Assembly: GCA_037133395.1 (NCBI GenBank)
Contig: JBAXOG010000005.1
Span: 985-64,984, forward strand
Reading direction: 5' to 3'
Origin: a bacterium
GTDB taxonomy: Bacteria; Verrucomicrobiota; Kiritimatiellia; RFP12; UBA1067
DNA length: 64,000 nucleotides
The notes beneath the pieces were generated by a model, which saw only the letters and a list, made by a program, of their open reading frames with translations, was not told the origin of the DNA and did no database searches. Every line of letters begins with the position of its first letter. The first letter of the stretch is position 1. The position numbers were made by a program, and so were the translations under genes. Positions 11,290-59,365 of the stretch are shown here, one piece after another.

Positions 11290-11343
11290 GAGAAATGTGT
11301 AGGGGACTGGTGTGCCTTGATAAAACAGAAAGGGTTTATGGTT

Positions 11344-16198: not shown

Positions 16199-16271
16199 GC
16201 TAGATATTAAAAGTGATTTCAGGTTCTGCGTCAAGCGTCTTTGCCTGAGGGGATAAGTGAAAGGAGTCAGA

Positions 16272-22200: not shown

Positions 22201-22250
22201 AGACCATTTCATCTTCGATTTTTATATGAGTGTCGTATAAGGAGTCAATA

Positions 22251-24263: not shown

Positions 24264-24331
24264 CGCCAGTAGCTATAACGCGAGTTCGGCGTGCTTAATG
24301 AAACAAACAATCATGATACACAGGGGTTTTG

Positions 24332-24478
24332 AGTAGCGGGCAAAGCCCGCATGAGGAGGAGCTGACAGGGAAGCGAATCGTGAAATGCTGGGCGGAGGCG
24401 GTCGTTGCGATAGGTGTTTTGTCCGTTCCTTTTTTATCAGCGATTTTCCCTCGGATTTGAGCGCTTTTAAAATGCGCC
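24332..24478 (+). repeat. Dead copy 1 of the 5' end (hairpin, SD and signal-peptide region) of the beta-helix lipoprotein gene, plus a shared junction of roughly 36 bp
   Basis: Near-identical to 28842-28986, and to 29750-29866 as far as atcagcg. The gene's start codon reads ACA here. The extension cgattttccctcggatttgagcgcttttaaaatgcgcc is shared only with copy 2. Confidence 0.8.
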
Positions 24479-24565: not shown

Positions 24566-24853
24566 ATGAAGGTTATGACAAATGATTGGAGCAACGACAC
24601 CATCCCTTATATCTGTTGGGATCGCGAGTGGACAGTTGCGGATATACGTGAGAGACTGCATTCCGAGCAGGGAGTAGAGCGACACCGGCTCATGGCGTGG
24701 CTGATGCGAGAGCTGAAGACCCCCGAGGTGTGGTATTTTTTGACTCCCACTGAAATCAAAGAGGAGTTTGACCAGATTAGTCGCTGGCTGGGACCAGCAA
24801 GACCTTTATGGAAATATCTTTTAAGGATTTGGCATGAACTGGGAAAAATCTAA
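24566..24853 (+). CDS. Small protein, putative cognate antitoxin of the downstream nucleotidyltransferase (family unassigned)
   Basis: 95-aa ORF that overlaps the downstream AbiEii-like gene by 20 nt. Its composition is AT-richer than the flanks. No motif was recognised. Confidence 0.4.
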   Translation: MKVMTNDWSNDTIPYICWDREWTVADIRERLHSEQGVERHRLMAWLMRELKTPEVWYFLTPTEIKEEFDQISRWLGPARPLWKYLLRIWHELGKI

Positions 24854-25490
24854 AGCGATAACACCTCTAAAAAGGGAGTTCCTCAAGGCCTTCTTTTCGC
24901 GGGAAAAAAGGTTTTTTCTTACAGGGGGGAGTGCTCTCGGCCTATTTTATCTTGAACATCGTTTCTCTTACGATCTGGATCTCTTTTCGAAGGAACATGT
25001 TGACTGGCTAGAAATTGATGGCGTTGTGCGGCTTTGTTCACGGGAGGTGGGAGCAAGTGTGCAACTGTTGAGGGATGCCCCGACGTTCAGGCGCTATTGC
25101 CTCGAAACGGAAGGAGGCAAAGAGATTGTTGACATCGTTGTGGATATCAGCCCCCAAGTAGATCAGAAAAAACAATGGATTGACAATATCCAGGTTGATA
25201 CCCTTCGCGAAATTATGCTTAACAAGATAACGACATTGATAAGTCGCTGCGAAGTTAAAGATATCGTTGACCTTTATTTTTTAGAGCAGGAAGGATTTGT
25301 CATTGAGGAGTGTTTCGAAGATGCGCAATTGAAGGATGGCGGTCTTGACCCTTCAATGATCTCTCTTATTCTGGATTCTTTACGAATTACAGAGTTGCCG
25401 GGCTATATGATTAAGCCGTTAACGATCACCGATTTGCGTGATTATGTTACTCGTTTGAAAAATCGTATGGCACTGCTGGCTTTGCCGTAG
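24834..25490 (+). CDS. Nucleotidyltransferase, AbiEii/AbiGii-like toxin family (short form)
   Basis: FFLTGGSALGLFYLEHRFSYDLDLFS matches the GG....(S/T).D.D signature. 218 aa. Confidence 0.6.
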   Translation: MNWEKSKAITPLKREFLKAFFSREKRFFLTGGSALGLFYLEHRFSYDLDLFSKEHVDWLEIDGVVRLCSREVGASVQLLRDAPTFRRYCLETEGGKEIVDIVVDISPQVDQKKQWIDNIQVDTLREIMLNKITTLISRCEVKDIVDLYFLEQEGFVIEECFEDAQLKDGGLDPSMISLILDSLRITELPGYMIKPLTITDLRDYVTRLKNRMALLALP

Positions 25491-25720
25491 CATTTTGCGA
25501 AGCGAATACGCTTGTTCCTTATTGAAAATTCAAAATTCAAAATTCGACGTTCAATGTTCGATGTTGGATATTCGACCTGTCCGCCGTAGGCATCGCGAAG
25601 GTGGATGTTCGTATTAATTCGTGTTTGTTCTCGCCATTCTGATGCTAAGAAATTGCCAGTTTCGAGTTTCAATTCTCCGCATTCCCTCTTTCTTTTCGCC
25701 CTTCGTCTCGCGTCTGTAAC

Positions 25721-25771
25721 TTTACGTAAAGCCAGAAACCCGTTGACTATTTTCCGACGATTTGATTAAGT
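25721..25771 (+). promoter_or_regulatory. Conserved PATR-gene promoter block P2
   Basis: TTTACGTAAA at 25721-25730, a 12-nt gap (gccagaaacccg), TTGACT at 25743-25748, a 17-nt spacer of different sequence, TTAAGT at 25766-25771. Confidence 0.65.
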
Positions 25772-25825
25772 GAGGCATGTGTAGGGGACTGGTGTGCCTT
25801 GATAGGGCGAAAGGGGTTTAGGGTT

Positions 25826-34500: not shown

Positions 34501-35536
34501 CAAGTTGTACGCCAATACCATGGATAATCCAGAGACCTATCCGACCCCCGAGCCGCAGCCGGTCGCCTTTGTCAAACCTGCTCCTGCCACGCCTCGTCAT
34601 GCGCCTGTAGCGACTGCTGACGGCTGGCCGTTCGACGCGGCAGAAGCCCAACGCCGTCAATCCGCAGCCGGTCTGCCGAAGGAACTGCAACTCGCGTGCG
34701 GCACGAACAGTAACGTGAAACTGGACTTTGTGCTGATCCCGGCCGGCGACTTCGTGCTCGGCAATGCCACTGGTGTCGACGACGAGTATCCGCCGACACG
34801 TGTTCGCATCGAGAAGCCCTTCTACATGTCGCGCAAGGAAATTTCTAACGCCCAGTTCCGCGAATTCGACGTCGCGCACGACAGCCGCACGATCGACACC
34901 TACACCAAGGATCATACCGGGCCCGGTCCATCGATGAACAACGCGGAGCAGCCTGCTGTGCGCGTAAGTTGGCAGGAAGCCATGGCGTTTTGCGATTGGT
35001 TTGGCCGTACCGCTGGTCAGCGGTGCGCATTGCCGACCGAGGCGCAATGGGAGTATGCTTGCCGCGCCGGCACCGCAACGCCGCTCTGGTTCGGCGACCT
35101 TGCCGCCAACTTCGGTCAGTATGCCAACCTCGCAGACAAGAGCCTCCGAAACGGTCTGCGTACCGTCAGGCCGTGGATTCCGGCTATTGAAACCGTCGAT
35201 GATGGCGCGACGATCACCCAAAACGTGGCCGCCTACCAGCCAAACCCGTGGGGTCTATACAGTATGCACGGCAACGTCGCTGAATGGACGCGTTCGCTTT
35301 TCAAGCCTTATCCATATCGTGACGACGATGGCCGTAACGCCACCACGGCGAAAAGCGTTGGCCAACGCGTTGTGCGCGGCGGCTCGTTTTGGGACCGCCC
35401 GTACCGTGCCACCTCGTCAGCTCGGCGCAACTACGAACCTTGGCAGCGGGTCTTCGATGTCGGGTTCCGCGTCATCATTGACCCCGACACCGCAATCAAG
35501 GTGGCCAGCGTCAGCAACCGCGCGGACGCGCACTAG
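31532..35536 (+). CDS. Giant secreted multidomain protein: PA14-like module, helical region, PD40/TolB-like beta-propeller, two CxxCH haem-c motifs and a C-terminal FGE-sulfatase-fold domain lacking the catalytic Cys pair
   Basis: The ORF track gives 31490..35536. ATG 31532 overlaps the upstream TGA as ATGA. Signal peptide MKTMLISILSLSAMLSTA. PA14-like GFGSDDGIEVWLNGKKI...LLVKIFNIGGSCGFYF. YLPDGKIMF and NPDGTG propeller motifs. CVGCH at 34010-34024 and 34160-34174. FGE fold: RVSWQEAMAFCDW, LPTEAQWEYACRAGT, HGNVAEWT, VVRGGSF. Confidence 0.7.
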   Translation: MKQGVTMKTMLISILSLSAMLSTAKPTAGEANFYVKKDSWTATMLATRDRYQTLADAAPLRAGPWSSTAALKAKSFGDALFPEQGVNLDSKDEKGNPVWRQHAEWVDGVAQPLSASGSSSTYLFRVITAKMAATVTAGFGSDDGIEVWLNGKKIHSVDAPRGVSSGQDKVALALEAGENRLLVKIFNIGGSCGFYFNLELAPPEDVWPQLAKDYPVQAAWLKRDTDGRLTAWLGGRNSVDNEKALISRPLAALGQPGVLHQEMAKLEQGGVSAKDSRWLDLYFRACQVRAVKEDAARFNTDALRRAIEDLSRTYPGQYTRGPEFLKRLEACKKKNEDVRLAADCGEMTDLKLLNDMLALQREALLANPLMNFERLLLVKRDSLGLPQNWQGNTSISRNGYDNEIVVLSPAHPGGKLTTLFKPQGKEFVGDVDLNFDGTRMLFSMPTKDAWQVWEIKADGSGLRQLTPDISKIDNYDACYLPDGKIMFNSTMNIHGVPCVGGGDKVGNLCRMDADGKNVRMLCFEQDQDWYPRVLSDGRVMYTRWEYSDLPHYHSRLLMSMNPDGTGQLSLYGSNSYWPNSIFYARQIPDAPSKIIAVISGHHGVRRMGELVLFDLARGRTEANGAVQRIPGYGKKVEPVIADGLVQGSWPKFLHPYPLSDKYFIVSCKPTPESRWGIYLVDVFDNMLCLAEEAGYELFEPIPLRARVKPAAIPDRVRPEMKEGTVILSDVYAGPGLKGVQHGTVKALRVYSFHFGYWGVGGHANIGVDGSWDGRRIIGTVPVYKDGSANFKVPANTPIAIQPLNERGEAVALMRSWFVVMPGENASCVGCHESVNSSPLIKPNLAMRRAPSAITPWNGPERPFSFRREVQPVLDKSCVGCHDGSKAGCPDLRGNRKGDRNFDASYLALMPFVRRPGPESDFHVLSPMDYHVSTSELFQMLRKGHHNVALDVDAWSRLTTWADLNVPCHGTWGEHRGSPMGAPEALRNEYRKLYANTMDNPETYPTPEPQPVAFVKPAPATPRHAPVATADGWPFDAAEAQRRQSAAGLPKELQLACGTNSNVKLDFVLIPAGDFVLGNATGVDDEYPPTRVRIEKPFYMSRKEISNAQFREFDVAHDSRTIDTYTKDHTGPGPSMNNAEQPAVRVSWQEAMAFCDWFGRTAGQRCALPTEAQWEYACRAGTATPLWFGDLAANFGQYANLADKSLRNGLRTVRPWIPAIETVDDGATITQNVAAYQPNPWGLYSMHGNVAEWTRSLFKPYPYRDDDGRNATTAKSVGQRVVRGGSFWDRPYRATSSARRNYEPWQRVFDVGFRVIIDPDTAIKVASVSNRADAH

Positions 35537-35743
35537 AGCATTTAACTTAATGTATGGCCTTACGCAGAAACGCAGTGATTATTCTGACAGGCTGACACGC
35601 ATATGGAGGGCACGGTTACACCCGTGCCGCGGTCGGGGTGTACCCCGGCCCTTGTCCTCTCTTGTATCACTGCAAGTCCCAAGTCCAAAGTCCTCGTTCG
35701 GGCTATGCAATGCAAAAAATCCCGAATTGCACGCACGCTCGAC

Positions 35744-35794
35744 TTTACGTAAAGCCAGAAACCCGTTGACTTTTTTCTGCTGGTTTGCTTAAGT
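35744..35794 (+). promoter_or_regulatory. Conserved PATR-gene promoter block P3
   Basis: TTTACGTAAA at 35744-35753, a 12-nt gap, TTGACT at 35766-35771, a 17-nt spacer identical to P1, TTAAGT at 35789-35794. Confidence 0.65.
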
Positions 35795-35848
35795 GAGAGA
35801 TGCGAAGGGATTGTGTGTCTCTGGGAAAAAAGAAAGGGGTTTAAGATT

Positions 35849-38800
35849 ATGAACTCAATGAAGAAGAGGTTATACAGAACAGCGGGACAGATGCTGGTCG
35901 CTCTGTTATGGGTGTTGGCACCTGTGGCTTTTGCTGGTAATGCCCCCTGGAGTGGCGGCGCTAATAACAACTGGACGGATGCAGGCAACTGGGTGGGCGG
36001 AGCCTATCCCGGCGCGACCAGCGGCACCACCAACCCGGACATCGCATCGTTCACGAATAACCCATCCAACAAGGCTCCGGCATTCAATGTCGCCAATATC
36101 AACCTTGGCGGTTTTACCTTCGATATCGGCGCAGGCGCGTTCACGCTCGGCACCACCGGCGGCAATGCTGTCCTCCTCTCCAGCGGCGGGAGCATCACCG
36201 TCAACAGCGGTGACACGGCCGCCCAGATCGTCAACGCCCCGCTTGTCATCCAGAATGCCTCGGGCGGCAGTTCTGGGGTGTACACGAATCTGAATAATTC
36301 TGCCACCTCTGCAACCCTTACCTTGGGCGGTAGCATCAAAGGAATGGCGACGACAGGCAACACTACCGCGCTCACCATCGGCGGGCTCAGTGTTGGAGCG
36401 AACACGGTTTCCGGCATCATCAGCGACGGCACCGCTGGCGGCGCCGTGTCGCTGACCAAGGTCGGCAGCGGAATATGGGTCCTGTCGGGTATCAACACTT
36501 ACACTGGGGCGACCGTGGCCAATGGCGGGGTTGTGTTTACTCCGATGCCTGGCTCTGTTAGTGGCATTCCGCAGGTTATCGGCACGCTGCAAATCACCGG
36601 CACGATGACCAATACGAGCAGTGTTTCGATTGCCAACGGGGGCACGCTCATTGACGGCAGTTCCACTGCCGCCAGCAATAACAACGTCACCAATCGCATC
36701 AACCCGGCGGCCACGCTGACGATGGGCGGTTCCAGTGGCGGCGGCACATTCACGCTGGCCGCCCCGGCTGCAGGTAGCACGCACAGCCAGACATTGGCAG
36801 GGCTTTCGATCGGCGCGGGTGGGAATACCATCAATGCCAGCGCCGCCACTGGTACGAACAAACTCTCCTTCAGCGGCGCGAGCGGCAGCGTTTACAGCCG
36901 CAGCACGGGCGGCACGGTTACTTTTGCCACCACCAATACGGCGGGGTTCAACGTCAGCTTCGCCAACACGCCGACGGGTGCCGGTGTCTCGGGCACCTCC
37001 GCTCCGCTCCTCATCGGCGCGATCCTCGGCGGTACCATCTGGGGTGGCACCGACTTTGTCGCTGCCAATTCCGGCACCGTGGCTGCGCCTACTTATGACA
37101 CTACGCTGACCGCAGACAAGAACGTGAACGTGACTGGCAACCTTTCGGGTGGCCCCCTCTCGGTCAACAGCCTGCGTTTGGCCGACACCACGAGCCGCAC
37201 CGTGATCCTTACGGGCACCAACACCATTGCCAGCGGCGGCATCCTGCTTCCGAGTACGGTGACGGCCGACAGCGTAAACCATACCATCACCGGCGGCTAT
37301 CTCACCAGCGGCACGGGCGACCTCTGGATCTATGCCGCCTCAGGAAATCAGGGTGCCTCCCCCCGCAGCGGTGGAGCTAACGGTAATCCGCGGGGGGCTT
37401 ACTATGCCATGACCATTGCGTCACCGATCATTGACAACGGAACGACTCCGGTGTCGCTCACGATCGGCGGCAGCGGCTACTCGCAGGTTCATATTATCAG
37501 CAACAACACCTACACGGGCGGCACCTATCTGGATAACGGGATGCTGGCCATCGATTCGGACAGTGCCTTTGGAGCCTCCAGCGGCGCGGTTACCGTAACG
37601 AGCGGAGCAAATAATTACCTTCGTCTGAACAACGCCATCACCAACAGCCGCAACTTCGTCATCAACTCCGGCGCCGTCCTCAACGTTGGAGGACCTACTC
37701 TGACCCTGAACGGTTCGCTCACCGGCGGCGGCAATCTGATGTTGGGGTTCTATGGCAGCACCGGTGTCGGTCTGATTTTGAACAATGACGAGAACGGTTT
37801 CACGGGAACCTACACGGTTGGCTCTGCCCTTAGGGCCAACGAGGGCGTCGGGCTTTCAGCCAATGCGAACCTTGACCTGGCGTCTGATGGAGGAAACGCC
37901 CAATCATACGGTTGTGGCACCCTCCAAACCTCGGCCAATGTCACTCGCTCGCTCGGTACCGGTCCTGGCCAAGTGCAGTTCACCACCGGTCAAGGCGCTG
38001 TTGGCGGCGGGTTCTCGGCGGTCGGCGGCCCTGTGACGGTGAGTCTGGGCGGGCTCGGCACGCCCGCAACCCTCACCTACGGATCCGGTGCGTTCGGCCT
38101 TGGGAATGCCGTAAGTTCTAGCCTTGTCCTTCAAGACCCCACCGCCAATAACACGTTGATCTGGGCCAATCCGATCGCCAACAACGGCAATATGGTGTGG
38201 GTCAACCAAGCCGCGCCCACTGCAGGCACCAACACGGTTGCGACCATGACCGGCGTCCTCAGTGGTACGGGTGGTATGACCAAAGAAGGGCTCGGTCTTC
38301 TCATTCTCTCTGGCACGAACACCTATACAGGCCAGACTCGGATCCTGAAGGGTACTCTCAGTGTCGCATCGCTCGGCTCGGTGAACGGAGCCACGAGCAA
38401 TCTCGGTCAGCCGTCTTCGGCGACCAACGGTACGATTGTCCTGGGTGGGAATGGCGGATATGGGGCTAATGCTGTTGCGTTGACCTATACCGGTTCAGGT
38501 GAAACCACGGATCGGATTCTCGAAATCGCCACCACGATTGGCAAGATCACACTGGAACAGGCCGGAACCGGGTTGTTGAAATTCGCAAGTCCCATCGTCG
38601 TGTCCGCTGTGGGTGATGCGGGTAAGACGCTTATCCTGCAGGGCTCGACCTCCGGCACAGGCGAGCTATCCGGTGGTGTGATCGATGGAACAAATCTCTC
38701 GACTGTTGCGGCGGCTGCGCTTGGTGCGGACCGGCTGGCCATAATCGCACCCGCCGATGTGAATTACGGCCAGTTGCGCGTCGGCAACAGGGTCAGCGGT

Positions 38801-39400
38801 AAGGGGATCGCGCCGGGAACCTATTTGACAGCCATTCCTGGTAATAGTACAACCGGAGTGCTGAGCCAAGCCACCACCGAGGCGCTGACCAATGGCCAGC
38901 AGGTGGTCTTCACAGGCTTTACGACGGTCACGAAGACCGGGACCAACCTCTGGAATGTTCTTGGCGCGAACACCTATTCAGGCATCACCACGGTCAGCAA
39001 TGGCGTGCTCGGTCTTTCGGGTAACCTCGGCAGCAACATCATCGTCAAAGGCGGTGCGAAACTTTCGGCGGGCGCCGCGGGCGGCGTGGGGACGCTCTCT
39101 ACCGCCGGTCTGATGACCTTCGAAACCAACAGCCGTCTCCTGGTGGATGTGGCATCGGCTACCGCGGATACGATCACCGCGGTCGGTAATGTCACGCTCA
39201 CAGGAACAGTCACGCTGGAAGTCAGCGGCGATCAACTACGAGGCGGAAGTTGGAAAGTGCTGGAGTCCACGGGCGGCACCATCACGGGCAGTTTCGTCCT
39301 CTCCGGCGCCCGGAGCGGATCGAAGCTCACGACGAGCGCCAACAGCAAGGAGATCTGGCTGACTATTCCGCCTAAGGGCACGATGATCCGGATATTCTGA
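35849..39400 (+). CDS. PATR-type surface protein
   Basis: The ORF track gives 35813..39400. The conserved start ATGAACTCAATGAAG is at 35849. It has a signal peptide and NNWTDAGNWVGGAYPG, with repeated LILSGTNTYTG units. It ends LTIPPKGTMIRIF. Confidence 0.8.
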   Translation: MNSMKKRLYRTAGQMLVALLWVLAPVAFAGNAPWSGGANNNWTDAGNWVGGAYPGATSGTTNPDIASFTNNPSNKAPAFNVANINLGGFTFDIGAGAFTLGTTGGNAVLLSSGGSITVNSGDTAAQIVNAPLVIQNASGGSSGVYTNLNNSATSATLTLGGSIKGMATTGNTTALTIGGLSVGANTVSGIISDGTAGGAVSLTKVGSGIWVLSGINTYTGATVANGGVVFTPMPGSVSGIPQVIGTLQITGTMTNTSSVSIANGGTLIDGSSTAASNNNVTNRINPAATLTMGGSSGGGTFTLAAPAAGSTHSQTLAGLSIGAGGNTINASAATGTNKLSFSGASGSVYSRSTGGTVTFATTNTAGFNVSFANTPTGAGVSGTSAPLLIGAILGGTIWGGTDFVAANSGTVAAPTYDTTLTADKNVNVTGNLSGGPLSVNSLRLADTTSRTVILTGTNTIASGGILLPSTVTADSVNHTITGGYLTSGTGDLWIYAASGNQGASPRSGGANGNPRGAYYAMTIASPIIDNGTTPVSLTIGGSGYSQVHIISNNTYTGGTYLDNGMLAIDSDSAFGASSGAVTVTSGANNYLRLNNAITNSRNFVINSGAVLNVGGPTLTLNGSLTGGGNLMLGFYGSTGVGLILNNDENGFTGTYTVGSALRANEGVGLSANANLDLASDGGNAQSYGCGTLQTSANVTRSLGTGPGQVQFTTGQGAVGGGFSAVGGPVTVSLGGLGTPATLTYGSGAFGLGNAVSSSLVLQDPTANNTLIWANPIANNGNMVWVNQAAPTAGTNTVATMTGVLSGTGGMTKEGLGLLILSGTNTYTGQTRILKGTLSVASLGSVNGATSNLGQPSSATNGTIVLGGNGGYGANAVALTYTGSGETTDRILEIATTIGKITLEQAGTGLLKFASPIVVSAVGDAGKTLILQGSTSGTGELSGGVIDGTNLSTVAAAALGADRLAIIAPADVNYGQLRVGNRVSGKGIAPGTYLTAIPGNSTTGVLSQATTEALTNGQQVVFTGFTTVTKTGTNLWNVLGANTYSGITTVSNGVLGLSGNLGSNIIVKGGAKLSAGAAGGVGTLSTAGLMTFETNSRLLVDVASATADTITAVGNVTLTGTVTLEVSGDQLRGGSWKVLESTGGTITGSFVLSGARSGSKLTTSANSKEIWLTIPPKGTMIRIF

Positions 39401-39488
39401 GCCAGAGTTTTTTTACCACGGAATACACGAAACTTCACGAAAGTGGATGAGAGAATTTAGCTACGGATTTTGAGGGGGAGAAGAGATT

Positions 39489-39569
39489 AACCACGAAGAA
39501 CACGAAGAGCACGAAGAAAATAGAAGTTGGATGAGTTAAACCTTTGTGTCCTTCGTGATCTTCGTGGTG
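39489..39569. repeat. Hairpin repeat, copy H3 (three-unit arms)
   Basis: aaccacgaagaacacgaagagcacgaag (39489-39516) pairs with ctttgtgtccttcgtgatcttcgtggtg (39542-39569). Confidence 0.75.
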
Positions 39570-39607
39570 AAAAATTTGGGTAGTGGGCAAAGCCCACATG
39601 AGGGGGA

Positions 39608-41374
39608 GTGATGGAAAATCGATGTATGAAGTATTGGGCAATCGTTGCTGTATGCATTCCGTGTTTGTGCGTGGATGCTGCTGACGTGAAGGTGATACGC
39701 GTGGCGGATTATGGCGCGATCAGTAATGACGGGCTGGATGACACGCCTGCGGTGCAGGCTGCGCTGAAGGCGTGCGCTGGTGCGCCGTCACGGCTCGTGT
39801 TCGGTCCTGGCCAGTATGATTTTTATCCTGACCGCGCGCCGGAGCGTTATCTCTTCGTCAGCAACAATGATGAGGGGCTTAAGCGCATCGCCTTTCCGCT
39901 GGGAAACTCCGAAAGTATTGAGATCGACGGCCAGGGCGCGCTCTTCATGTTCCGGGGTTGGATCACGCCGTTCGCGCTAGACCACGCCAAGAACATCACG
40001 CTGAAGAATTTCTCGATGGACTGGACGCGTACCTTCCATAGCGAAGGCAAGATCCTGGAGGTCAATACCAACGGGCTCACGGTCAGTTTCTCCGAAGCAT
40101 TTCCGTATGCAGTCCGCAACGGTATCCTTGTCTTTACGGACGGGAAGAAGAGTCAGGAGCAGCAGACCACAGTTAAAGGCTCAGAACTCACCTACCCTTA
40201 TGGCAGTATGCTGGAGTTCGATGCGCAGAAGCGTGAGACCGCCTACATGGCCCGTGATTACTGGGTGAAGGGCGGGGTGATGGCACAGGACCTCGGTCAG
40301 CACAAGGTCCGCATCATACTGCCGAAACTGACGGGGACGGTCGGCAATATCCTGGTCTTCGGTCCGAGTCACCGCGACTGTCCGGGCATCGTGATCAGTG
40401 ACAGCGCCAACGTGACAGTGAACCACGTGAACCTCTATCATTGCGGTGGCATGGGTGTGATTGCTCAACGCAGTCGTGACATTACCGTAGACCATGTGCA
40501 AGTCACGCCCGCGCCGGGCAGCGGCCGGGTCGTCAGCATCACGGCTGACGCCACGCACTTTGTGAACTGCTCTGGAAAAATTATTTTGAGCAACTCTCTC
40601 TTCGAGAACCAGAAGGACGACGCGACCAATGTTCACGGCATCTATGCCCGCATGGCGCGTCTGCTTGCACCGGATTTGATCGAGGTGCAACTGCTCCATC
40701 CGCAACAGCAAGGGTTCGATTTCATCGTGCCCGGAGGTAAACTCGAGCTGGTGCATGGTCCGAGCCTGGTCACCTACGGCGAGGCAATCGTCAAAACAGT
40801 CGAGCGGGTGAACAAAGAGTTTACGCGCGTCACGCTGACCCAGCCGTTGCCGGCTGAAAGTATCGTCGGCGACGTGGTGGCGAGCACAGATGGTTATCCT
40901 GAGACCTGGATTCACCACTGCGTGATCCGCAATAACCGCGCCCGCGGCATCTTGCTCGGCTCCCGCGCAAAGATGGTGATCGAAGAAAATGTTTTTCACA
41001 CACCCGGCGCAGCGATCCTGCTGGAGGGCGATGGACGTTTCTGGTACGAGCAGGCTGGCGTGCGCGATTTGGTGATCCGTAAGAACACGTTTGATAACTG
41101 CAACTTCGGCGTGTGGGGCAAGGCGACCATCGAGGTTGGCGCAGGCATTGAGAAAACGTGCCGGGCGACCAGCCGCTACAACCGCAACGTCGTGATCGAA
41201 GATAATCTGTTTCGTACTTTTGGCAGCGGTTCGCTGGTGCAGATGTATTCGGTGGACGGCTTGACGATTCGTAGCAATCGCGTTGAAAAGACTGGGGCGT
41301 ATCCGGCCAAGGCGGGCGCGAATGACAAGCGGTTTGACATTGTGGAGAGCGACAACGTATCGATCAGCGAGTAG
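39608..41374 (+). CDS. Secreted right-handed beta-helix glycosidase, possibly GH110-like (alpha-1,3-galactosidase type)
   Basis: 588 aa; ATG 39611 is the likely true start. N-terminal VIRVADYGAISNDGLDDTPAVQAALKAC (pectate-lyase-3-type opening), then YLFVSNNDEGLKRIAFPL...IEIDGQGALFMFRGWITPF...NITLKNFSMDW and NQKDDATNVHG. The GH110 call rests on remembered family patterns only. Confidence 0.55.
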   Translation: MMENRCMKYWAIVAVCIPCLCVDAADVKVIRVADYGAISNDGLDDTPAVQAALKACAGAPSRLVFGPGQYDFYPDRAPERYLFVSNNDEGLKRIAFPLGNSESIEIDGQGALFMFRGWITPFALDHAKNITLKNFSMDWTRTFHSEGKILEVNTNGLTVSFSEAFPYAVRNGILVFTDGKKSQEQQTTVKGSELTYPYGSMLEFDAQKRETAYMARDYWVKGGVMAQDLGQHKVRIILPKLTGTVGNILVFGPSHRDCPGIVISDSANVTVNHVNLYHCGGMGVIAQRSRDITVDHVQVTPAPGSGRVVSITADATHFVNCSGKIILSNSLFENQKDDATNVHGIYARMARLLAPDLIEVQLLHPQQQGFDFIVPGGKLELVHGPSLVTYGEAIVKTVERVNKEFTRVTLTQPLPAESIVGDVVASTDGYPETWIHHCVIRNNRARGILLGSRAKMVIEENVFHTPGAAILLEGDGRFWYEQAGVRDLVIRKNTFDNCNFGVWGKATIEVGAGIEKTCRATSRYNRNVVIEDNLFRTFGSGSLVQMYSVDGLTIRSNRVEKTGAYPAKAGANDKRFDIVESDNVSISE

Positions 41375-41404
41375 ATCGAGGTGGATTGGGGAGGGGGAGA
41401 TTTT

Positions 41405-41471
41405 AACCACAGAGAACGCAAAGAACTCAAAGAAAGAAATTGATCTTTGTGATCCTTGTGTTCTTTGTGGT
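41405..41471. repeat. Hairpin repeat, copy H4 (CACAAAG variant with compensatory changes in both arms)
   Basis: aaccacagagaacgcaaagaactcaaag (41405-41432) pairs with ctttgtgatccttgtgttctttgtggt (41445-41471). Its 3' 53 bp are repeated at 41783-41835. Confidence 0.7.
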
Positions 41472-41602
41472 AAATTCTATCTGCGCTGTGAACGGTTTCG
41501 GGTTGATGTATTAACCGCAACCAGCCTTCGCCAAACGGCTTCCACCTTTGCTAAAGCTACGGCGGATAAAACGGCGGTCAGGAAGAACGGGAAGAACAGG
41601 GT

Positions 41603-41778
41603 GCATCTGAGATTCATTGGCCTGTTAACTGGGCAGATAAGCTGGGCGTATAGGCGTCCTCGCCTGTACACTGGTCCGGTAGCTGCCGGACCAGTCATAG
41701 ACACCACGCTTCTGCCTTCGCCAAGGCTACGGCGCGGCAGGCGCCTATACGCCCAGGGTTGCAACGAATCTCAGATGC
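41603..41778. repeat. Palindromic element E1, about 175 bp (MITE- or REP-like, or a structured RNA)
   Basis: The termini gcatctgagattc / gaatctcagatgc are inverted. The inner arms ctgggcgtataggcg..cgcctg / caggcgcctatacgcccag pair. A central nested hairpin is ctggtccgg-tagctg-ccggaccag. A second copy is at 59188-59365. Confidence 0.65.
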
Positions 41779-41879
41779 GCCCCAAAGAACTCATAAAAAG
41801 AAATTGATCTTTGTGATCCTTGTGTTCTTTGTGGTGAATAATTTTTAATAGGGATTGATAATTGAATCGGGGGGATCAG

Positions 41880-44102
41880 ATGAGGATTGCAGTTGTTTTT
41901 ATTTTGATGGGGAGTTGTATATTGGGTCATGCGGAGACGGTGCCGCGCATTACAGACGTTACGCCGATGGACCGCTGGATGGATCTGACATGGGCTTATG
42001 AGGGGAATCCCGTCGGCGGCTTCGCTGTGGCGGTGTCGAAGAATGGACATGACTTTGAAATGACTGAGCATGTTGGACCGGAGGCGCGTTCGGCGTCCGT
42101 ATTTGTCGAAAAGCGGTTCTCCGCTTTTCTGGGCATGGGCACTAAACTCTTTCTGCGTGTCGCAGTAGTGGATGCCGCTGGCAAGCCAGGTCAATGGTCG
42201 GAAACTGTTTCGGCTCAGCCGGCGAAGACGCGGGACATCGAGGCGGAACTCCGCAGGAAGTTCGATTATCCCGTGGAGGGGCGACCTTACAGCGCGGACG
42301 ATCCGGCCTATACCGTGGTGTACACGGAGCAGCAGAAGCAAAGTCAGCGTGCCTCAGCCCGGACCATGATCACGCAACTGCAACAGGCGGCGAAGTCATC
42401 CACAGTGCCGCACCAGTTTACCATTCCGCCGGGCATTTACCGCGTGGGGGTGGGGGAAATAGACCTGAAGGGCGTGAGCGATTTCTCGATCCACGCCCCC
42501 GGAGTGGAGATCATCGTTGATGCTGCCTCCAAGGGCGCGGCCTTTGTTTTCAATGCCTGTACCAACATCACGTTGACAGGACGTCCTGTTGGAACGGGTG
42601 GCAAGGAGGGTTCCTACCTGACCGTCGATTCCGAGCAGTTGCCGATGTCTGTAGCACGCATTCTGGCGGTTGATGTGCCACAGCGAATAATTGATGTTGA
42701 GATTCTACCGGGTTATTCTACGGAGGTCCCGGAGCGGGAACGCATGTTGGCCTACGATCCAGCAGGCCACATGCTCAATATCCAGCAGATGGGGTGGCGC
42801 GGCGTGAAACCTTTGGGCGATCGGCGTTTTCGGCTGACCAGTCCGTCGCTCCGTCACCCCGGTTGTGAGAAGACGGTTTTCAAGATAGGCAATTTACTGG
42901 CCTTGCACATCAATGCGGAAGATGGCCGGGCCAATCATTCGGTCTATGCCAATCAGGGCTGTCGCAATATGACGTTCGAGTCCATCCGGGTCTACAGCGG
43001 GGGCGGCTGCCCGGGTGATCAGGGAACAGCCGGCAATACGGTTTACCGCGACTGGCGTCTGTGGACGCGTCCGGGGACCAGTCGGCTCCCTGTTGCCACC
43101 GGACTGGGGCAGTTTTCCAAGAACGGGGGCATCTTCGTGTTCGAGGATTGCGAATTTGGCCCGCATTTGGATGACGGTATTAACCTGCTCTCCGGAATGT
43201 CGATCGCTGGAAGACAAAACAGCGCCACAGAGATTGTGGTCACAAGCGGGCGGCCGCCGACCCCCGGCTCGACACTCACCTTTTACGAGTACACCAACTG
43301 GGTTAGTCTTGGCGAGGCGAAGGTTGTTTCATCGGAGCGCCTGTCTGACACGAACGTGTTGGTAGAAGTCAATGCCTTTGTTCTTGCGAATAAAACCAGA
43401 ACAAAAAACTATCACGATTACCGGACGGTGTTGGACCGGCCCGTGAAGCTGACGCCCTTTGCTATGATTGTCCATTCGGATTACCGCGCCGATTCGATCG
43501 TGGTGCGCGGTTGTCTCTTCCGCGACCAGCTCGCACAGATCATGCTGTTGCAGGGGGCGAAGAGCGGCTTGATCGAAAACAATCTGTTATTGCGCAGCAC
43601 GGGTGCTGGCATCAGTCCGCAATTTTCGCAGTACTGGTGGGAGGGGCCGATGCCGTCAAACTTCATGATCAGGAACAATGTGATCCGGGATAATCCAGTG
43701 GCGGCGGCGGTGACCGGTTTTGCGGGCAACGCGTCGATTGCGATTTACGCTGGCACGAAGTACCCGTCCAATGCGCGGTTGATGCGTGGTTTCCGTGTCG
43801 AGGGCAACACGATCATCAATCCGTCGGTCTACGGGATCTGCATACGGAATGCGGAGGATGTTTCGATCCGGTATAACCGCATCATCAATCCTGGTGCGCA
43901 GGCTGTGGAAGGACTGTATAATGGTCGTCCGATTGCCGAGCTCTACGCCGCCATCTGTCTGGATGCGGTGAGTCGCGCCGTCGTGAGTGACAATGAAATT
44001 ATTTTTCGCAATACGCGATGCCAACGCGCAGTTTTGATGGAATCGAACTGCGATCCCGCAACTGTTCGGATCGAACGTAACAGAGAAAGGAGGACACCAT
44101 AA
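41880..44102 (+). CDS. Secreted protein with an FN3-like N-terminal domain and a right-handed beta-helix
   Basis: The ORF track gives 41862 (TTG). ATG 41880 gives MRIAVVFILMGSCILGHA. The Ig/FN3-like stretch is MDLTWAYEGNPVGGFAVAVSKNG...LRVAVVDAAGKPGQWS. Beta-helix turns follow (IENNLL, IRNNVI, VEGNTI, IRYNRI, VSDNEI). Confidence 0.6.
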   Translation: MRIAVVFILMGSCILGHAETVPRITDVTPMDRWMDLTWAYEGNPVGGFAVAVSKNGHDFEMTEHVGPEARSASVFVEKRFSAFLGMGTKLFLRVAVVDAAGKPGQWSETVSAQPAKTRDIEAELRRKFDYPVEGRPYSADDPAYTVVYTEQQKQSQRASARTMITQLQQAAKSSTVPHQFTIPPGIYRVGVGEIDLKGVSDFSIHAPGVEIIVDAASKGAAFVFNACTNITLTGRPVGTGGKEGSYLTVDSEQLPMSVARILAVDVPQRIIDVEILPGYSTEVPERERMLAYDPAGHMLNIQQMGWRGVKPLGDRRFRLTSPSLRHPGCEKTVFKIGNLLALHINAEDGRANHSVYANQGCRNMTFESIRVYSGGGCPGDQGTAGNTVYRDWRLWTRPGTSRLPVATGLGQFSKNGGIFVFEDCEFGPHLDDGINLLSGMSIAGRQNSATEIVVTSGRPPTPGSTLTFYEYTNWVSLGEAKVVSSERLSDTNVLVEVNAFVLANKTRTKNYHDYRTVLDRPVKLTPFAMIVHSDYRADSIVVRGCLFRDQLAQIMLLQGAKSGLIENNLLLRSTGAGISPQFSQYWWEGPMPSNFMIRNNVIRDNPVAAAVTGFAGNASIAIYAGTKYPSNARLMRGFRVEGNTIINPSVYGICIRNAEDVSIRYNRIINPGAQAVEGLYNGRPIAELYAAICLDAVSRAVVSDNEIIFRNTRCQRAVLMESNCDPATVRIERNRERRTP

Positions 44103-47100
44103 AAACCAAACTCACCATTCTCGCCACCCTCCTGCTGGCATCAAGCACCCTTCTCGCTGCCCAAGACACGACGGATGACGACAGAATGTTGCGCTGGGCT
44201 GACGATCTGCTGTCCGCCAAAAGGGAATTGTTGCGGCAGGCCGGCGAAGCCTACACCTTCAAGCCCGTGAGCACGCTGACGATCAAGCTCGGGCAAGAGT
44301 CCCAAAGCATAAGCGTGGATGTCTCCGGCATCGACGATCTCGTGCTCCAGACGGACGCGAAGGGCAAGATGGAGCGGCTGCCCGTGGTCATCGGCGACCC
44401 GGTGCTCACGGGATTGGATGGAAAGCGCATCTCCTTGTCGTCATTGACGCCGTCCAACGCGAAGCTTCTGACTGGCCGATTTTCAACCGACAAGGATTTG
44501 TCCGGAAAGCCGTTGTCGGTCAAGGGCAAGACGTACGCGGCCGGCGTCCAGTTCAGGACGGATATTGATGTGGTGTTCAAGCTGGACGGGAAGTTCAAGA
44601 TGCTGGACCTGCAAGCCGGAGCCGATGTGTTCAAAAACAAGAGCAACGTGCCTGTGAAGCTTAAATTCAACGACAGGTTCCGTCAAGACGCTGAGCAAAG
44701 ACTCGACAAGATCACCGAGGTCTATCCAGAATTGGCGACGGTCACCTCGGGCCTTGGGATGGAATGGCTCTTCGACAAAAGCACGGCGAGGGAACTGTCG
44801 TTTCTGGACACGATGTTCAAACAGTTGCAAGAATCTGGGAAGCCATTCTCGGATAAGGTTGATAAACTGGCTCAGGCACCAGACAGCAAAGCCATCCTCG
44901 CCCAGATAGCCGAGCTTCACTCGTTCTCGAATGCGTTCAAGCTCCGCAAGATGCAACTTGACCTGGTGAACCCGGAGGCCTTGGGGAGGGCGTTGATGGA
45001 TTTGGCGAAGGAGCATCCCGGCACGTTTCCGGATCTGGCAAGACTTGAGGCCGAGGTTAAGGCGATGCCCGCCAGTATCGCTGCCTTGAAACAGGATTTC
45101 ACCGCGCAGAGCGCCAACGCCATCGCCGACTATGAGAAGATTTATGGCCTTCAGCGTGAGATATTGCTGCGCAACCCAGTCCTTGATTTCGACAAGATAC
45201 TGCTGATAAAACGCCTTGTGCGTCCCGTTCAAACGGTACAGGGAAGTCTGGGGCTCCCCGTGAACTACATGGGCACGTCGGACGTTCCCGGTACCGGCTG
45301 GGACAATCAGATCGCCACGCTTGAGTACAGGAAAAAGGACGCGGAGCCTGCCTGCATATTCAAACCCGCCAAAACAGAATTCATCTGCGACATGAATCTG
45401 CATTTCGACGCCGACCGCATGCTCCTGTCGATGCCCAACGAGAAAAAGATATGGCAGGTCTTCGAACTGAAAACAGACGGCACCGGCTTGAGGCAGGTCA
45501 TCTCCGATATTGGCAACGACAACGACATCCACAACTATGACGCCTGCTATCTTCCCAACGGTAAAATCATATACACGTCCACGGCGCCTATGGTCTCCGT
45601 GCCCTGCCTTGGAGGCGGTTCCAAAGTCGCCAATATCTTTCTCTTCAACCCGACGGACAATTCGCGGCGTCAACTTTGCTTCGACCAGGAGCACAACTGG
45701 TGCCCACGCGTGATGAACGACGGGCGAGTCCTCTACCTGCGCTGGGAATACTCCGACCTTCCTCACTCCAACAGCCGCCGCCTTTTCACGATGAATCCGG
45801 ATGGCACCGGGCAGTTGGCGTATTACGGAAGCAACTCCTACTGGCCGAACGGGGTTTTCTTCGCCAAGCCAATCCCAAACCATCCGACGAAGGTTGTCGG
45901 CATCGTCACCGGGCATCACGGTTCGCCACGTATGGGCGAGATGGTTATCTTCGATCCTGCCAAGGGCACGGCCGAGGCCGACGGCGTCGTGCAGCGCATC
46001 CCCGGCTTTGGCAAGAAGGTAGAGCCGGTGGTGGCTGACGCGTTGGTGGACAGGTCATGGCCCAAATTCCTCCATCCTTACCCCCTCAGCGACAAGTATT
46101 TTCTCGTCTCCTGCAAACCGACCCCCGACGCCCAGTGGGGCGTGTACCTTGTGGACATATTTGACAACCTGCTGCCCCTCAAGGAAATTCCAGGGCAAGC
46201 CCTCTTCGAGCCGGTCCCGTTGAGGAAACAGAGCGTGCCTCCGGTGATCAGCGAACGTGTCGATCTGAAACGCGACGACGCAGTCGTCTATATCCAGAAC
46301 ATCTATTATGGCCCTGGGCTCAAGGGCATCCCCAAAGGCACGGTGAAGTCACTGCGCATCCTGAGCTACACCTTCAGCTATCATGGCACAGGCGGACTTC
46401 ATGGCGTGCTGGGCATCGATGGCCCATGGGATATCAAGCGCGTGCTGGGCGTCGTTCCGGTCTATGAGGATGGCTCGGCGAGCTTCAGGATACCGGCGAA
46501 CCGCCCGGTAGCCTTGCAACCTCTTGATAAGGACGGCAAGGCCCTGCAGATCATGCGTAGCTGGTTCGTCGGCATGCCGGGCGAGACCGTCTCCTGCGTC
46601 GGCTGCCATGAGAACCGCAACGACACGCCGATGCCGAACGCCAGCGTGGCATCGACCCAGACGCCCATGGATTTAAGCACGTGGCGTGAGGACAAGACGT
46701 ATGGCTTCAGTTTCGCCAACGAGATCCAACCCGTGCTAGACAAGTATTGCATCGGCTGTCATGACGGCTCCAAGCAGGCCAAAGGCGGAATAGATCTCCG
46801 AGGGGATGTGATGATAAAGGATTATTCATCGAAGCACCCGGGCAACGGATCATACATCGAAGGTATCGCCGGTAAATTCTCGGTCGCCTATGCGGATCTC
46901 TACTCGTTTGTGCGTGGTTCCGGAATCGAAAGCGATATGCGTCTGTTAACGCCGATGGAGTTCCACGCGGATTCCACGGCCTTGATACAGATGCTCCGAA
47001 AAGGACACAACAATGTCACGCTGGACAAGGCATCCATGGAGAAGCTGATCACATGGATAGATGTCAATCGCCCATACCATGGCACATGGTCGGGCGTGGT

Positions 47101-48154
47101 CGGCGACACGGCTGTCCAAAAAGAAGGACGGCGCGCTGAACTGCGCAAACGCTATGCCAATGTCGACGAGAACCACGAAGAGAAGCCCAAGGCCGGGGAG
47201 AGACAGCACATTGTCATGCCTGGGAAACGCAACGAGCCGGACAAGACCGTCCCCTCCCTGCAAGGCTGGCCGCTGGCCGCCGACGCCGCTCGGGCGGAGC
47301 AGGCCGAACTTGGAGGGACAAGCAAGGAAGTCGATCTTGGCGACGGCATCAAGATGGTCTTCCGCAAAATCCCAGCGGGCTCCTTTGTGATGGGTTCCAA
47401 CGCTGGACATCGGGATGAATTGCCGCTGACGGTCGTAAGGATCGAGAAGACATTCTGGATCGGCGAAGCAGAGGTCAGCAACAGGCAATATGTCCAGTTC
47501 GATGCCACGCATGACAGCCGTCGCGAGGACAGGCATGGCTACCAGTTCGGGCAGCTCTGCTACCAGGCCAACGAGCCGGACCAGCCCGCCGTCCGCGTTG
47601 CATGGCGTGAGGCCAAGGCCTTTTGCGCCTGGTTGTCCAATAAAGCAAGTGTCAGGGCCGTCCTGCCAAGCGAGGCCCAATGGGAATACGCCTGCCGCGC
47701 AGGTTCGGCGACGCCCTTCTCTTTCGGTGCGGTCGATGCCGATTACACAAAGCACGCCAATCTGGGTGACCAGCGACTGGCGGAGTTCGCTTGCGACCCG
47801 TACAGATACAGGGTGCCCATACCAAACTCGTCACGGTATGACGCCTATATCCCGAGGGATGACCGTTTCAACGATGGCGGCTTCATCTCAGAGCCGGTCA
47901 AGAAATATCAGCCCAACCCATGGGGCTTGTACGACATGCATGGCAATGTCTGGGAGTGGACACGCTCCGCGTACAGGCCTTATCCATACAAAGCAGAGGA
48001 CGGCAGGGAGTCGGACACCATCGGGGCGGAACGCGTCGCACGCGGCGGCTCATGGTTTGACAGACCCAAAATCGCCACGGCGAGTTATCGTCTGCCGTAT
48101 TGCGACTACCAGAGGGTCTACAACGTCGGATTCCGGGTCGTCCTGGAGGAGTGA
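44099..48154 (+). CDS. Paralogue of the giant protein: NPCBM-like module, helical region, beta-propeller, two CxxCH motifs and a Cys-less FGE-fold domain
   Basis: The ORF track gives 44186..48154 (first ATG). The upstream in-frame sequence IKTKLTILATLLLASSTLLAAQD is a typical signal peptide, preceded by AAGGAGG (44087-44093). The only candidate start is ATA 44099, so the start is uncertain. NPCBM-like LSVKGKTYAAGVQFRTDIDVVFKLDGKFKMLDLQAGADV. CVGCH at 46595-46609 and CIGCH at 46748-46762. FGE fold: RVAWREAKAFCAW, LPSEAQWEYACRAGS, HGNVWEWT, VARGGSW. Confidence 0.65.
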   Translation: MKTKLTILATLLLASSTLLAAQDTTDDDRMLRWADDLLSAKRELLRQAGEAYTFKPVSTLTIKLGQESQSISVDVSGIDDLVLQTDAKGKMERLPVVIGDPVLTGLDGKRISLSSLTPSNAKLLTGRFSTDKDLSGKPLSVKGKTYAAGVQFRTDIDVVFKLDGKFKMLDLQAGADVFKNKSNVPVKLKFNDRFRQDAEQRLDKITEVYPELATVTSGLGMEWLFDKSTARELSFLDTMFKQLQESGKPFSDKVDKLAQAPDSKAILAQIAELHSFSNAFKLRKMQLDLVNPEALGRALMDLAKEHPGTFPDLARLEAEVKAMPASIAALKQDFTAQSANAIADYEKIYGLQREILLRNPVLDFDKILLIKRLVRPVQTVQGSLGLPVNYMGTSDVPGTGWDNQIATLEYRKKDAEPACIFKPAKTEFICDMNLHFDADRMLLSMPNEKKIWQVFELKTDGTGLRQVISDIGNDNDIHNYDACYLPNGKIIYTSTAPMVSVPCLGGGSKVANIFLFNPTDNSRRQLCFDQEHNWCPRVMNDGRVLYLRWEYSDLPHSNSRRLFTMNPDGTGQLAYYGSNSYWPNGVFFAKPIPNHPTKVVGIVTGHHGSPRMGEMVIFDPAKGTAEADGVVQRIPGFGKKVEPVVADALVDRSWPKFLHPYPLSDKYFLVSCKPTPDAQWGVYLVDIFDNLLPLKEIPGQALFEPVPLRKQSVPPVISERVDLKRDDAVVYIQNIYYGPGLKGIPKGTVKSLRILSYTFSYHGTGGLHGVLGIDGPWDIKRVLGVVPVYEDGSASFRIPANRPVALQPLDKDGKALQIMRSWFVGMPGETVSCVGCHENRNDTPMPNASVASTQTPMDLSTWREDKTYGFSFANEIQPVLDKYCIGCHDGSKQAKGGIDLRGDVMIKDYSSKHPGNGSYIEGIAGKFSVAYADLYSFVRGSGIESDMRLLTPMEFHADSTALIQMLRKGHNNVTLDKASMEKLITWIDVNRPYHGTWSGVVGDTAVQKEGRRAELRKRYANVDENHEEKPKAGERQHIVMPGKRNEPDKTVPSLQGWPLAADAARAEQAELGGTSKEVDLGDGIKMVFRKIPAGSFVMGSNAGHRDELPLTVVRIEKTFWIGEAEVSNRQYVQFDATHDSRREDRHGYQFGQLCYQANEPDQPAVRVAWREAKAFCAWLSNKASVRAVLPSEAQWEYACRAGSATPFSFGAVDADYTKHANLGDQRLAEFACDPYRYRVPIPNSSRYDAYIPRDDRFNDGGFISEPVKKYQPNPWGLYDMHGNVWEWTRSAYRPYPYKAEDGRESDTIGAERVARGGSWFDRPKIATASYRLPYCDYQRVYNVGFRVVLEE

Positions 48155-53772: not shown

Positions 53773-53824
53773 GTAACAACGTTGAAAAGCGCGAATCGTA
53801 TAAATGAAAAATAGGGAATGACTC

Positions 53825-59187: not shown

Positions 59188-59365
59188 AGCATCTGTGATT
59201 CATTGACCTGTTGACTGGGGCAGATAGGCTGGGCGAATAGGCGTCCCCGCCTGTTCTCTGATCCGGCAACTGCCGGAGCGGTTCCCGAACTAGCCATTTA
59301 TCCCCGGCCACTGTACAGGCGGGGACGCCTATACGCCCAGGGGTTGCAACAATTTGTAATCATAA
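59188..59365. repeat. Palindromic element E2 (second copy of the E1 family)
   Basis: gagcatctgtgattcattgacctgttgactggg...ctgggcgaataggcgtccccgcctgt ... acaggcggggacgcctatacgcccagg, with a nested tccggca-ac-tgccgga hairpin. It starts 12 nt after the GH43 stop. Confidence 0.65.

Follow-up and report, generated by a model that had tools for sequence, protein, structure and literature searches.

Does a gene order that occurs twice within one bacterial locus reflect a fixed functional unit, or a looser arrangement of genes and intergenic elements? The question is raised by a stretch of 64,000 nucleotides (the window, to which all positions refer unless another locus is named) from contig JBAXOG010000005.1 of a bacterium of the Kiritimatiellia. 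Twice in this window a gene for an exported PATR-repeat protein (PATR1, 25826-28723; PATR2, 35849-39400) is followed by genes for beta-helix proteins (bh1, 29781-31535, in the first series; bh2, 39608-41374, and bh3, 41880-44102, in the second) and by a gene for a giant multidomain protein (giant1, 31532-35536; giant2, 44099-48154). An earlier note, which had given these positions and domains, described the two series as modules of three components forming one functional unit, for example for the surface capture and subsequent processing of a glycan, as an alternative to polysaccharide utilisation loci (PULs) with SusC and SusD. The positions and domains are all confirmed; the functional unit is not supported. 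The best overall explanation, which we consider probable, is a set of PATR-led, recombining enzyme operons rather than a fixed module, so that operons of this kind, putatively under common regulation, replace the proposed three-part glycan system. The organisational picture of PATR-led units is likewise probable.

The two gene series are part of a larger assembly. The window contains an island of about 60 kb of carbohydrate enzyme genes, all on the + strand, of a PVC (Planctomycetota-Verrucomicrobiota-Chlamydiota), Verrucomicrobia-like bacterium, as is evident from the map of open reading frames (ORFs) and from a Pfam search with 27 long ORFs of the + strand. The large ORFs encode two GH106, one GH95, two GH127 and two GH43 enzymes, a sulfatase, two SASA esterases, and LacI, ThuA and BamA proteins. 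Five PATR genes are present, each of which leads a unit. The first (13-645), inside which the window opens, is followed by a GH106 gene, the beta-helix gene bh0 and a second GH106 gene; the second, PATR0 (11317-14631), by a gene for a LacI-family regulator (15050-16147, + strand, Pfam); and the third, which is short (16257-18080), by a sulfatase gene (18136-19965, Pfam), a GH95 gene and the esterase gene SASA1 (22230-24263), which closes the unit. The fourth unit, PATR1, bh1 and giant1, is the first module of the earlier note. The fifth consists of PATR2, bh2, bh3 and giant2 and corresponds to the second module, the genes of which do occupy 35849-48154; however, the unit runs on through 48209-56245 (+ strand, Pfam) into a gene for a SASA esterase fused to GH43, directly after giant2, and two GH127 genes. 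The esterase of this fusion (48209-51205) is 61% identical to SASA1. A giant gene is thus present in only two of the five PATR-led units.

No gene for a SusC-like TonB-dependent transporter or a SusD-like protein was found by Pfam among the 27 long + strand ORFs, in agreement with the earlier view of the locus as free of SusC/D, and the island belongs with the PVC type of carbohydrate-enzyme cluster. Verrucomicrobiota and Planctomycetota carry PUL-like carbohydrate-enzyme clusters without SusC/D, with which the window has in common a dense one-strand array of hydrolases, esterases and a sulfatase together with a local regulator. It differs from them in that its units are PATR-led and share a common upstream block, and in that two of them contain a giant; a literature search turned up no published account of either trait. 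Like the SusC/SusD PULs of Bacteroidota, the window contains co-localised, probably co-regulated enzymes, and an exported non-catalytic protein is encoded first in each unit; unlike these PULs it has no TonB-dependent transporter or SusD-like gene, and the leading gene encodes a beta-strand repeat protein.

The strongest evidence on the proposed functional unit comes from the neighbourhoods of the giant genes in other genomes. Homologues of the giants were found in at least 589 stretches of species-representative genomes, and the best 80 were used for the neighbourhood test, in which each PATR and each beta-helix protein encoded in the window served as a tblastn query against flanks of up to 10 kb. 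None of these 80 species-level loci has a PATR or beta-helix neighbour, which sets an upper bound of roughly 4%. Beta_helix and PATR are also not among the Pfam families matched by at least two of 69 immediate upstream genes of giants, nor do they recur in Pfam scans of 77 immediate downstream neighbours. The three families are thus not co-localised beyond close relatives, the very outcome that had been named beforehand as a refutation of the three-part unit. The only recurrent partner of the giants, in 9-12 of about 77 loci, is a fused propeller/di-haem gene that resembles the beta-gamma subunits of hydrazine synthase. This gene, encoding a propeller and a di-haem peroxidase-like domain with two CxxCH motifs, directly follows about one in seven giants (e.g., L011:10269-12137, and in L019, L006 and L022). 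Genes for Dak1, Dak2 and DeoC/LacD aldolases lie near giants in about 9-10 of 76 loci (L084 9443-12097, L024 8818-9819, L022 7577-8212), which hints at a link between the giant and the catabolism of a small sugar product, and SASA esterases recur beside giants in L046, L063, L026 and L058; both recur less than the beta-gamma-like partner. More generally, giants in other genomes frequently have genes for carbohydrate enzymes or for the catabolism of sugars beside them.

Close orthologues of each component likewise occur apart. Orthologues of giant1 follow a GH106 gene (87% identity), lie near genes for a 3-keto-disaccharide hydrolase and a sulfatase (83%), or are embedded in the orders GH106, GH127, giant, GDSL esterase (82%) and second HZS_alpha protein, giant, Dak1, Dak2, DeoC (73%); giants without PATR or beta-helix genes are found in L002 and L082-L084. 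The beta-helix genes show the same independence. In the related contig L087 a PATR gene, a GH110 gene (89% identical to bh2) and a bh1 orthologue (90%) are followed by housekeeping genes and no giant. In L089, from the genome that encodes the 87% giant1 orthologue, the bh1 orthologue (81%) lies beside an IS66 element and a GH30 gene, on a contig other than that of the giant. L090 contains the upstream block, a PATR gene, a 69% bh3 orthologue and an esterase gene, and neither a GH110 gene nor a giant. Of the relatives, only the closely related L086 retains the full three-part set; it is syntenic with the window (order PATR, beta-helix, bh1 of 89% identity, giant), and the beta-helix-giant pair is also kept in L092. 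Since the parts reassort between relatives, the three-part set is an arrangement particular to this lineage rather than a machine of fixed composition.

Both giant genes start on the stop codon of the preceding gene, as the earlier note had pointed out, with a 4-nt overlap that reads ATGA at the bh1/giant1 junction (31532-31535) and ATAA at the bh3/giant2 junction (44099-44102). For giant1, ATG 31550 may be used instead. The signal peptide of giant2 is encoded from ATA 44099, with the sequence AAGGAGG 5 nt upstream, and no canonical start codon occurs until 44186, downstream of the signal peptide. The 96% identical orthologue in L092 reads ATGA at this junction (1666-1669), from which it follows that the window has a G>A change that converts the ATG of giant2 to ATA; the same change turns the bh3 stop codon from TGA to TAA. 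The ATA is either a rare non-canonical start, the mark of a weakened gene, or a sequencing error. In a model narrower than the three-part unit, a GH110-like enzyme would release or expose a sugar that the giant then oxidises or otherwise modifies, and translational coupling would hold the two in step. The ATGA overlaps at the first junction of the window and in L086 and L092 are consistent with this model, as are the export of both proteins and the carbohydrate-binding modules of the giants. However, in other lineages giants are almost never preceded by a beta-helix gene, orthologues of bh1 and bh3 occur without an adjacent giant, and even within the window the upstream partner differs, as bh1 and bh3 are only 23% identical. 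We therefore regard such a pair as rather unlikely.

The two gene series also share non-coding DNA. The block upstream of PATR1 (25719-25825, + strand) contains the palindrome CTTTACGTAAAG, followed by the hexamers TTGACT and TTAAGT separated by a 17-nt spacer, and it is matched upstream of PATR2 (35742-35848, + strand; palindrome at 35743-35754) with 78% identity between 25719-25844 and 35742-35867. The earlier observation that both modules open with the same block is therefore correct, but the block is not confined to them. A third copy lies ahead of PATR0 (block and gene together, 11237-14631, + strand), and the PATR1 block is 87% identical to this copy over 158 nt, closer than to the PATR2 block; a diverged copy precedes the third PATR gene at 16257. 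The exact 12-bp palindrome occurs in the 64 kb only at 11238, 25720 (to 25731) and 35743, each time 5' of a PATR gene, and the palindrome block is also found 5' of PATR genes in the related contigs L086, L087 and L090. From the copy before PATR0 it is clear that the block goes with PATR genes in general, not with two modules. It looks like a putative operator plus promoter, and the LacI-family protein is a candidate for binding to the palindrome. An exact-match scan of metagenomes for the block returned two loci only, both from close relatives, too few for a survey of a regulon. A scan for consensus promoters and terminators, which found no more of them in the window than in shuffled sequence, was not used.

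The intergenic hairpins show a similar distribution. The 3' flanks of PATR1 and PATR2 with the hairpin that follows (28731-28826 and 39449-39566) are about 91-93% identical, which confirms the shared flank of the earlier note, but the long hairpin, built of CACGAAGA repeats and their complement, goes with the beta-helix genes. It is found downstream of PATR1 (28768-28828, + strand; -37.4 kcal/mol for a 121-nt stretch, z -4.3), ahead of bh2 (39490-39568, + strand; -47.2 kcal/mol, z -5.95), after bh2 (41406-41471, + strand; z -8.2) and before bh0 (3571-3654, + strand), so that the folding z-scores range from -4 to -8. A partial copy precedes bh3 (41775-41839), of which 41783-41839 is a 95% direct repeat of the 3' part of 41406-41471. 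Because the long hairpin is found ahead of beta-helix genes, it marks those genes rather than the 3' ends of PATR genes. A shorter element, the small hairpin leader, matches between 29719-29777 and 39550-39608 and recurs at 28810-28868, in accordance with the earlier statement that bh1 and bh2 share a 5' untranslated hairpin and leader. In the bh1 leader a small GC hairpin (29752-29766, + strand; copies at 28843-28857 and 39583-39597) lies just 5' of the Shine-Dalgarno sequence. Its stem shows one compensatory change, from GCGGGC/GCCCGC to GTGGGC/GCCCAC, which would favour a function as regulatory RNA. The leader and hairpin elements are poorly conserved in related loci, where no wider covariation beyond this one change was found; they are thus kept alike within this genome and not deeply conserved. 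The non-coding elements, with identities of 78-96%, are much more alike than the encoded paralogues, which are 46-47% identical in amino acids, so that the shared DNA is not due to chance.

Taken with the neighbourhood data, these distributions bear on the dedicated three-component system for glycan capture and processing. It would account for an order that occurs twice in the window with common regulatory DNA and 4-nt stop/start overlaps, and that is kept in L086, with the beta-helix-giant pair kept in L092. The absence of either partner from all 80 giant loci weighs heavily against it, as does the finding of close orthologues of each part without the others. Moreover, the two modules do not have orthologous beta-helix genes, the three other PATR-led units of the window have no giant, and the shared DNA blocks also occur outside the two modules. 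We consider a system of this kind very unlikely. Nor can the two modules be regarded as one duplicated block. Despite their common leader, the bh1 and bh2 proteins give no BLAST match with each other, the nearest paralogue of bh1 in the window being bh0 (28% identity). The giants are 47% identical to each other, and either is 46-54% identical to homologues from Planctomycetota; being as far apart as they are from another phylum, they do not derive from a recent duplication of the whole block. The likeness of the modules is instead due to paralogous PATR genes, four GH110-fold beta-helix genes, anciently diverged giants and near-identical intergenic elements.

Recombination at such elements is suggested by the bh1 leader, which is present three times (24329-24478, 28836-28985 and 29745-29894). 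The copy at 28836-28985 (+ strand) is a pseudo-leader that comprises the leader hairpin, the Shine-Dalgarno sequence and the signal-peptide codons of bh1, with ATG changed to ACG, and is 96% identical to the copy at 24329-24478. Both extra copies read ACG and each lies just 5' of a toxin-antitoxin-type cassette (24566-25490 and 28989-29610), which suggests that the cassettes were inserted by recombination at the repeated leaders. The second of these is the DUF4160/DUF2442 cassette (28989-29610, + strand; genes at 29090-29326 and 29310-29597), whose genes, at 29090-29597, indeed separate PATR1 from bh1 as first described. It is 93% identical in L087/L088 (3252-3874), where its neighbours are a YDG/MBG_2 gene on one side and a PATR gene on the other; the different position in relatives indicates that the cassette is mobile or has been inserted repeatedly. 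An integron-like origin of the toxin-antitoxin cassettes was considered, and no integrase or attC-like evidence was found for it.

The PATR proteins carry signal peptides and PATR repeats. PATR1 (Pfam PATR, E 3.4e-17) and PATR2 (also a Pfam PATR match) are 46% identical over about 650 residues. Signal peptide and repeats are features in common with the passengers of type V autotransporters. Unlike those, the PATR proteins match only PATR repeats in Pfam and NCBIfam, with no C-terminal translocator beta-barrel detected, and have a short conserved C-terminal motif instead. This motif, PP[KR]GT[ML][IV][RQ][IF][FL], is common to all four complete PATR proteins (encoded at 14584-14631, 18033-18080, 28680-28723 and 39353-39400), ends with an aromatic or hydrophobic residue, and reads PPRGTMIRFL at the C-terminus of PATR1. 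It has no match to a library family and may be a sorting or outer-membrane signal. The PATR proteins may serve in surface capture, as proposed in the earlier note. In its upstream block and N-terminus PATR1 comes closest to PATR0, but in its 3' end to the gene at 13-645. At their 3' ends PATR2 and PATR0 have 93% of their nucleotides in common, and positions 319-618 of the truncated PATR gene at the start of the window are 87% identical to 28397-28696 of PATR1. Such 3'-end identities indicate that the PATR paralogues are mosaics or have undergone gene conversion.

Each of the four beta-helix proteins can be related to GH110, to a different degree. The bh2 protein (likely start ATG 39611, + strand), with Pfam matches to Beta_helix and, above the Pfam cut-offs, to the GLAA-B barrels I and II, aligns to the GH110 structure 7jw4 with an E-value of 1.9e-161. 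At the one position where the D344N mutant 7jwf departs from 7jw4, bh2 has an aspartate, which indicates that the catalytic Asp is kept. On these matches bh2 is a true GH110 protein, of predicted alpha-galactosidase type, and the only such one of the four; it is a clear member of the family of GH110 alpha-1,3-galactosidases with known structure (7jw4, 9beh, 9i4f and 8pvs). The bh1 protein (+ strand; Pfam Beta_helix), a lipoprotein with lipobox FISGC, is a distant relative. Its structure model (pLDDT 93) has GH110 enzymes as all of its top 15 structural matches (E 2e-27, TM 0.64-0.68), whereas by sequence the match to GH110 reaches an E-value of only 0.002; phmmer comparisons of bh1-type proteins with GH110 give E-values of only 0.002 and 0.027, and no barrel family is matched in Pfam. 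The bh1 family has the invariant motifs ADA.H and GDD, which correspond to TADATHF and QKDDATN of GH110. The bh1 protein thus shares the modelled fold and the ADA.H and DD motifs with the solved enzymes. The proteins bh0 (3571-5518 including the preceding long hairpin, + strand), encoded between the two GH106 genes, bh1 and bh3, a divergent Beta_helix protein (+ strand), differ from them in being only 14-17% identical, below the level of recognition by sequence. The model indicates a GH110 fold for bh1 and, by extension, for bh0 and bh3.

The PATR-led, recombining operons could work as follows. A LacI-type regulator would control the PATR-led units as one regulon, and the long intercistronic hairpins would set the relative mRNA levels of the PATR and enzyme genes. 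The hairpins would also provide the homology for recombination, by which genes are reshuffled and toxin-antitoxin cassettes admitted. The GH110-type enzymes would remove alpha-linked galactose-type residues from a branched, acetylated and possibly sulfated glycan, and the GH106, GH95, GH127 and GH43 enzymes, the esterases and the sulfatase would act alongside them; the putative target glycan would be rich in galactose, rhamnose, fucose and arabinose. The exported giant would hold the glycan through its exchangeable N-terminal carbohydrate-binding module, and would carry out or relay a redox reaction that depends on haem and acts on a compound derived from a sugar.

Of the whole locus, it is the giant family that merits further study. 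Both giants carry signal peptides and match HZS_alpha (E 3.5e-32) and FGE-sulfatase (E 3.4e-46 and 5e-44) in Pfam. In giant1 (+ strand) the signal peptide is followed by an N-terminal beta-sandwich, a helical linker, a core resembling the alpha subunit of hydrazine synthase and a domain with the FGE fold; giant2 (+ strand) has an NPCBM domain, the same type of core and the FGE-fold domain. The N-terminal module varies among giant2 homologues, including NPCBM, F5/8 type C, Laminin_G_3 and CBM_6 domains, and this interchangeability is the strongest hint that the family acts on glycans. Pfam does not convincingly place the N-terminal domain of giant1 in any family (RhaB_D2, E 0.025); by analogy with giant2 and the other homologues this domain may likewise be a carbohydrate-binding module. 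The presence of giants with such modules in enzyme loci makes glycans candidate ligands or substrates. The family is large, with 1412 clusters at E <= 1e-10 (90% database) and, for the core, 6494 clusters at E <= 0.001 (50% library). It occurs in Verrucomicrobiota, Kiritimatiellota, Planctomycetota, Hydrogenedentota, Lentisphaerota and others, one cultured host being Halosquirtibacter xylanolyticus.

The core of the giant was modelled separately (residues 330-1040; pLDDT 80, pTM 0.82). The model matches the whole hydrazine synthase alpha chain (Foldseek 5c2v_A, E 9.5e-26, TM 0.60), with TolB-type propellers far behind. In common with hydrazine synthase alpha and its HzsA-related homologues (PMC12758564), the giants have the propeller, the middle domain and two c-type haem motifs, and some members of the family adjoin a beta-gamma-like gene. 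The two CxxCH motifs are invariant among 16 aligned members, the first of them reading C-V-G-C-H-E-x-x-N with a near-invariant Asn four residues after the His. In hydrazine synthase the Tyr ligand of haem alpha-I, Tyr591, is located four residues after the CxxCH His, His587 (PMC12758564); in the giants this position is occupied by Asn, as counted from the motif rather than from an alignment to hydrazine synthase. The giants differ from hydrazine synthase further in the lack of a beta-gamma partner, no homologue of which was found in the window, in the added carbohydrate-binding module and FGE fold, and in their enzyme context. The study on the origin of the anammox enzymes found no homologue of hydrazine synthase alpha with known function, and homologues outside anammox bacteria lack key residues (PMC12758564). 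That study was the only one bearing on the giants that a literature search returned, with no relevant paper on PATR proteins in glycan loci or on a hydrazine-synthase/FGE fusion and none that mentions both hydrazine synthase and FGE.

A role of the giant in nitrogen-oxide or hydroxylamine chemistry like that of hydrazine synthase, with an incidental place in the island, would explain the full-length structural match and the fused beta-gamma-like gene that follows some homologues, in agreement with the neighbourhood trend in PMC12758564. It is very unlikely, given the Asn at the Tyr-ligand position, the absence of the beta-gamma-like gene from the window, the missing key residues of such homologues (PMC12758564) and the carbohydrate-binding modules fused at the N-terminus.

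The C-terminal 250 residues of the giants resemble the FGE-fold proteins PvdO (5hha), PorK/GldK (9mzu) and FGE (2aft), with which they share the RGGS and HGNxxEW motifs; the nearest solved relatives are PvdO and PorK, followed by FGE (E 4e-24, PDB profile). They differ in that the cysteine pair of FGE is missing and the domain is fused to a di-haem protein. In a comparison with the human sequence the FGE motif GGSxxCHxSYCxRYR, which holds the copper-binding catalytic Cys pair, aligns to GGSF-WDRP--YRA in the giant, and no conserved Cys is present at the FGE catalytic positions in 16 or in 48 members of the family. That the giant serves in sulfatase maturation, forming formylglycine in exported sulfatases with electrons supplied by the haems, has only the slimmest chance of being correct, because the FGE-sulfatase match and the sulfatase genes in the third unit of the window and beside the giant orthologue P0004 are outweighed by the loss of the catalytic Cys pair, by the closer relation to PvdO and PorK and by the lack of an adjacent sulfatase at most giant loci.

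The domains of the giants suggest, tentatively, an exported, glycan-directed haem redox enzyme. The wider proposal, that the giants form a large and so far undescribed class of haem redox enzymes which are exported, directed at glycans and perform an oxidative step in the breakdown of complex glycans, is put forward with somewhat greater reserve. If true, the giants would represent a new type of "auxiliary activity" in the carbohydrate degradation of PVC bacteria and their neighbours, and for the first time a function would be known for relatives of hydrazine synthase outside the anammox bacteria.

Several points weigh against the interpretation as PATR-led operons with a glycan-directed giant. 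The palindrome sits upstream of the putative -35 element, an unusual place for a repressor, and the operon structure, the promoter and the link to the regulator are predictions from the DNA. Beta-helix proteins of very divergent sequence can escape the neighbourhood scan, which was based on BLAST and on ORFs called for the purpose. The 4-nt overlap at the beta-helix-giant junction is kept in L086 and L092 and may reflect a local functional coupling of the pair. Carbohydrate enzymes are very common in PVC genomes, and their nearness to giants may partly be due to chance. Finally, the redox role of the giant is deduced from its domains, and since its FGE fold lacks the catalytic Cys and its haem pocket is unlike that of hydrazine synthase, no known chemistry can be transferred to it.

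The island has further features. A DUF6577/AbiEii toxin-antitoxin-type cassette (8944-10805) lies between the GH106b gene and PATR0. On either side of it is a direct repeat of about 330 nt (8422-8776 and 10846-11155); the two copies are 98-99% identical and look like duplicated local intergenic DNA. An AAA_14/DUF4143 ATPase gene (56392-57711) between GH127 and GH43 splits the run of enzyme genes and is probably another insertion in the island. Between GH43 and ThuA, at 59229-59340, a 26-nt inverted repeat is present with 96% complementarity and its arms 60 nt apart. Part of this repeat (GGCGCCTATACGCCCAG) recurs upstream of bh3 (41740-41760), and L090 contains similar sequence, so that the repeat may represent a short intergenic element present in several copies.

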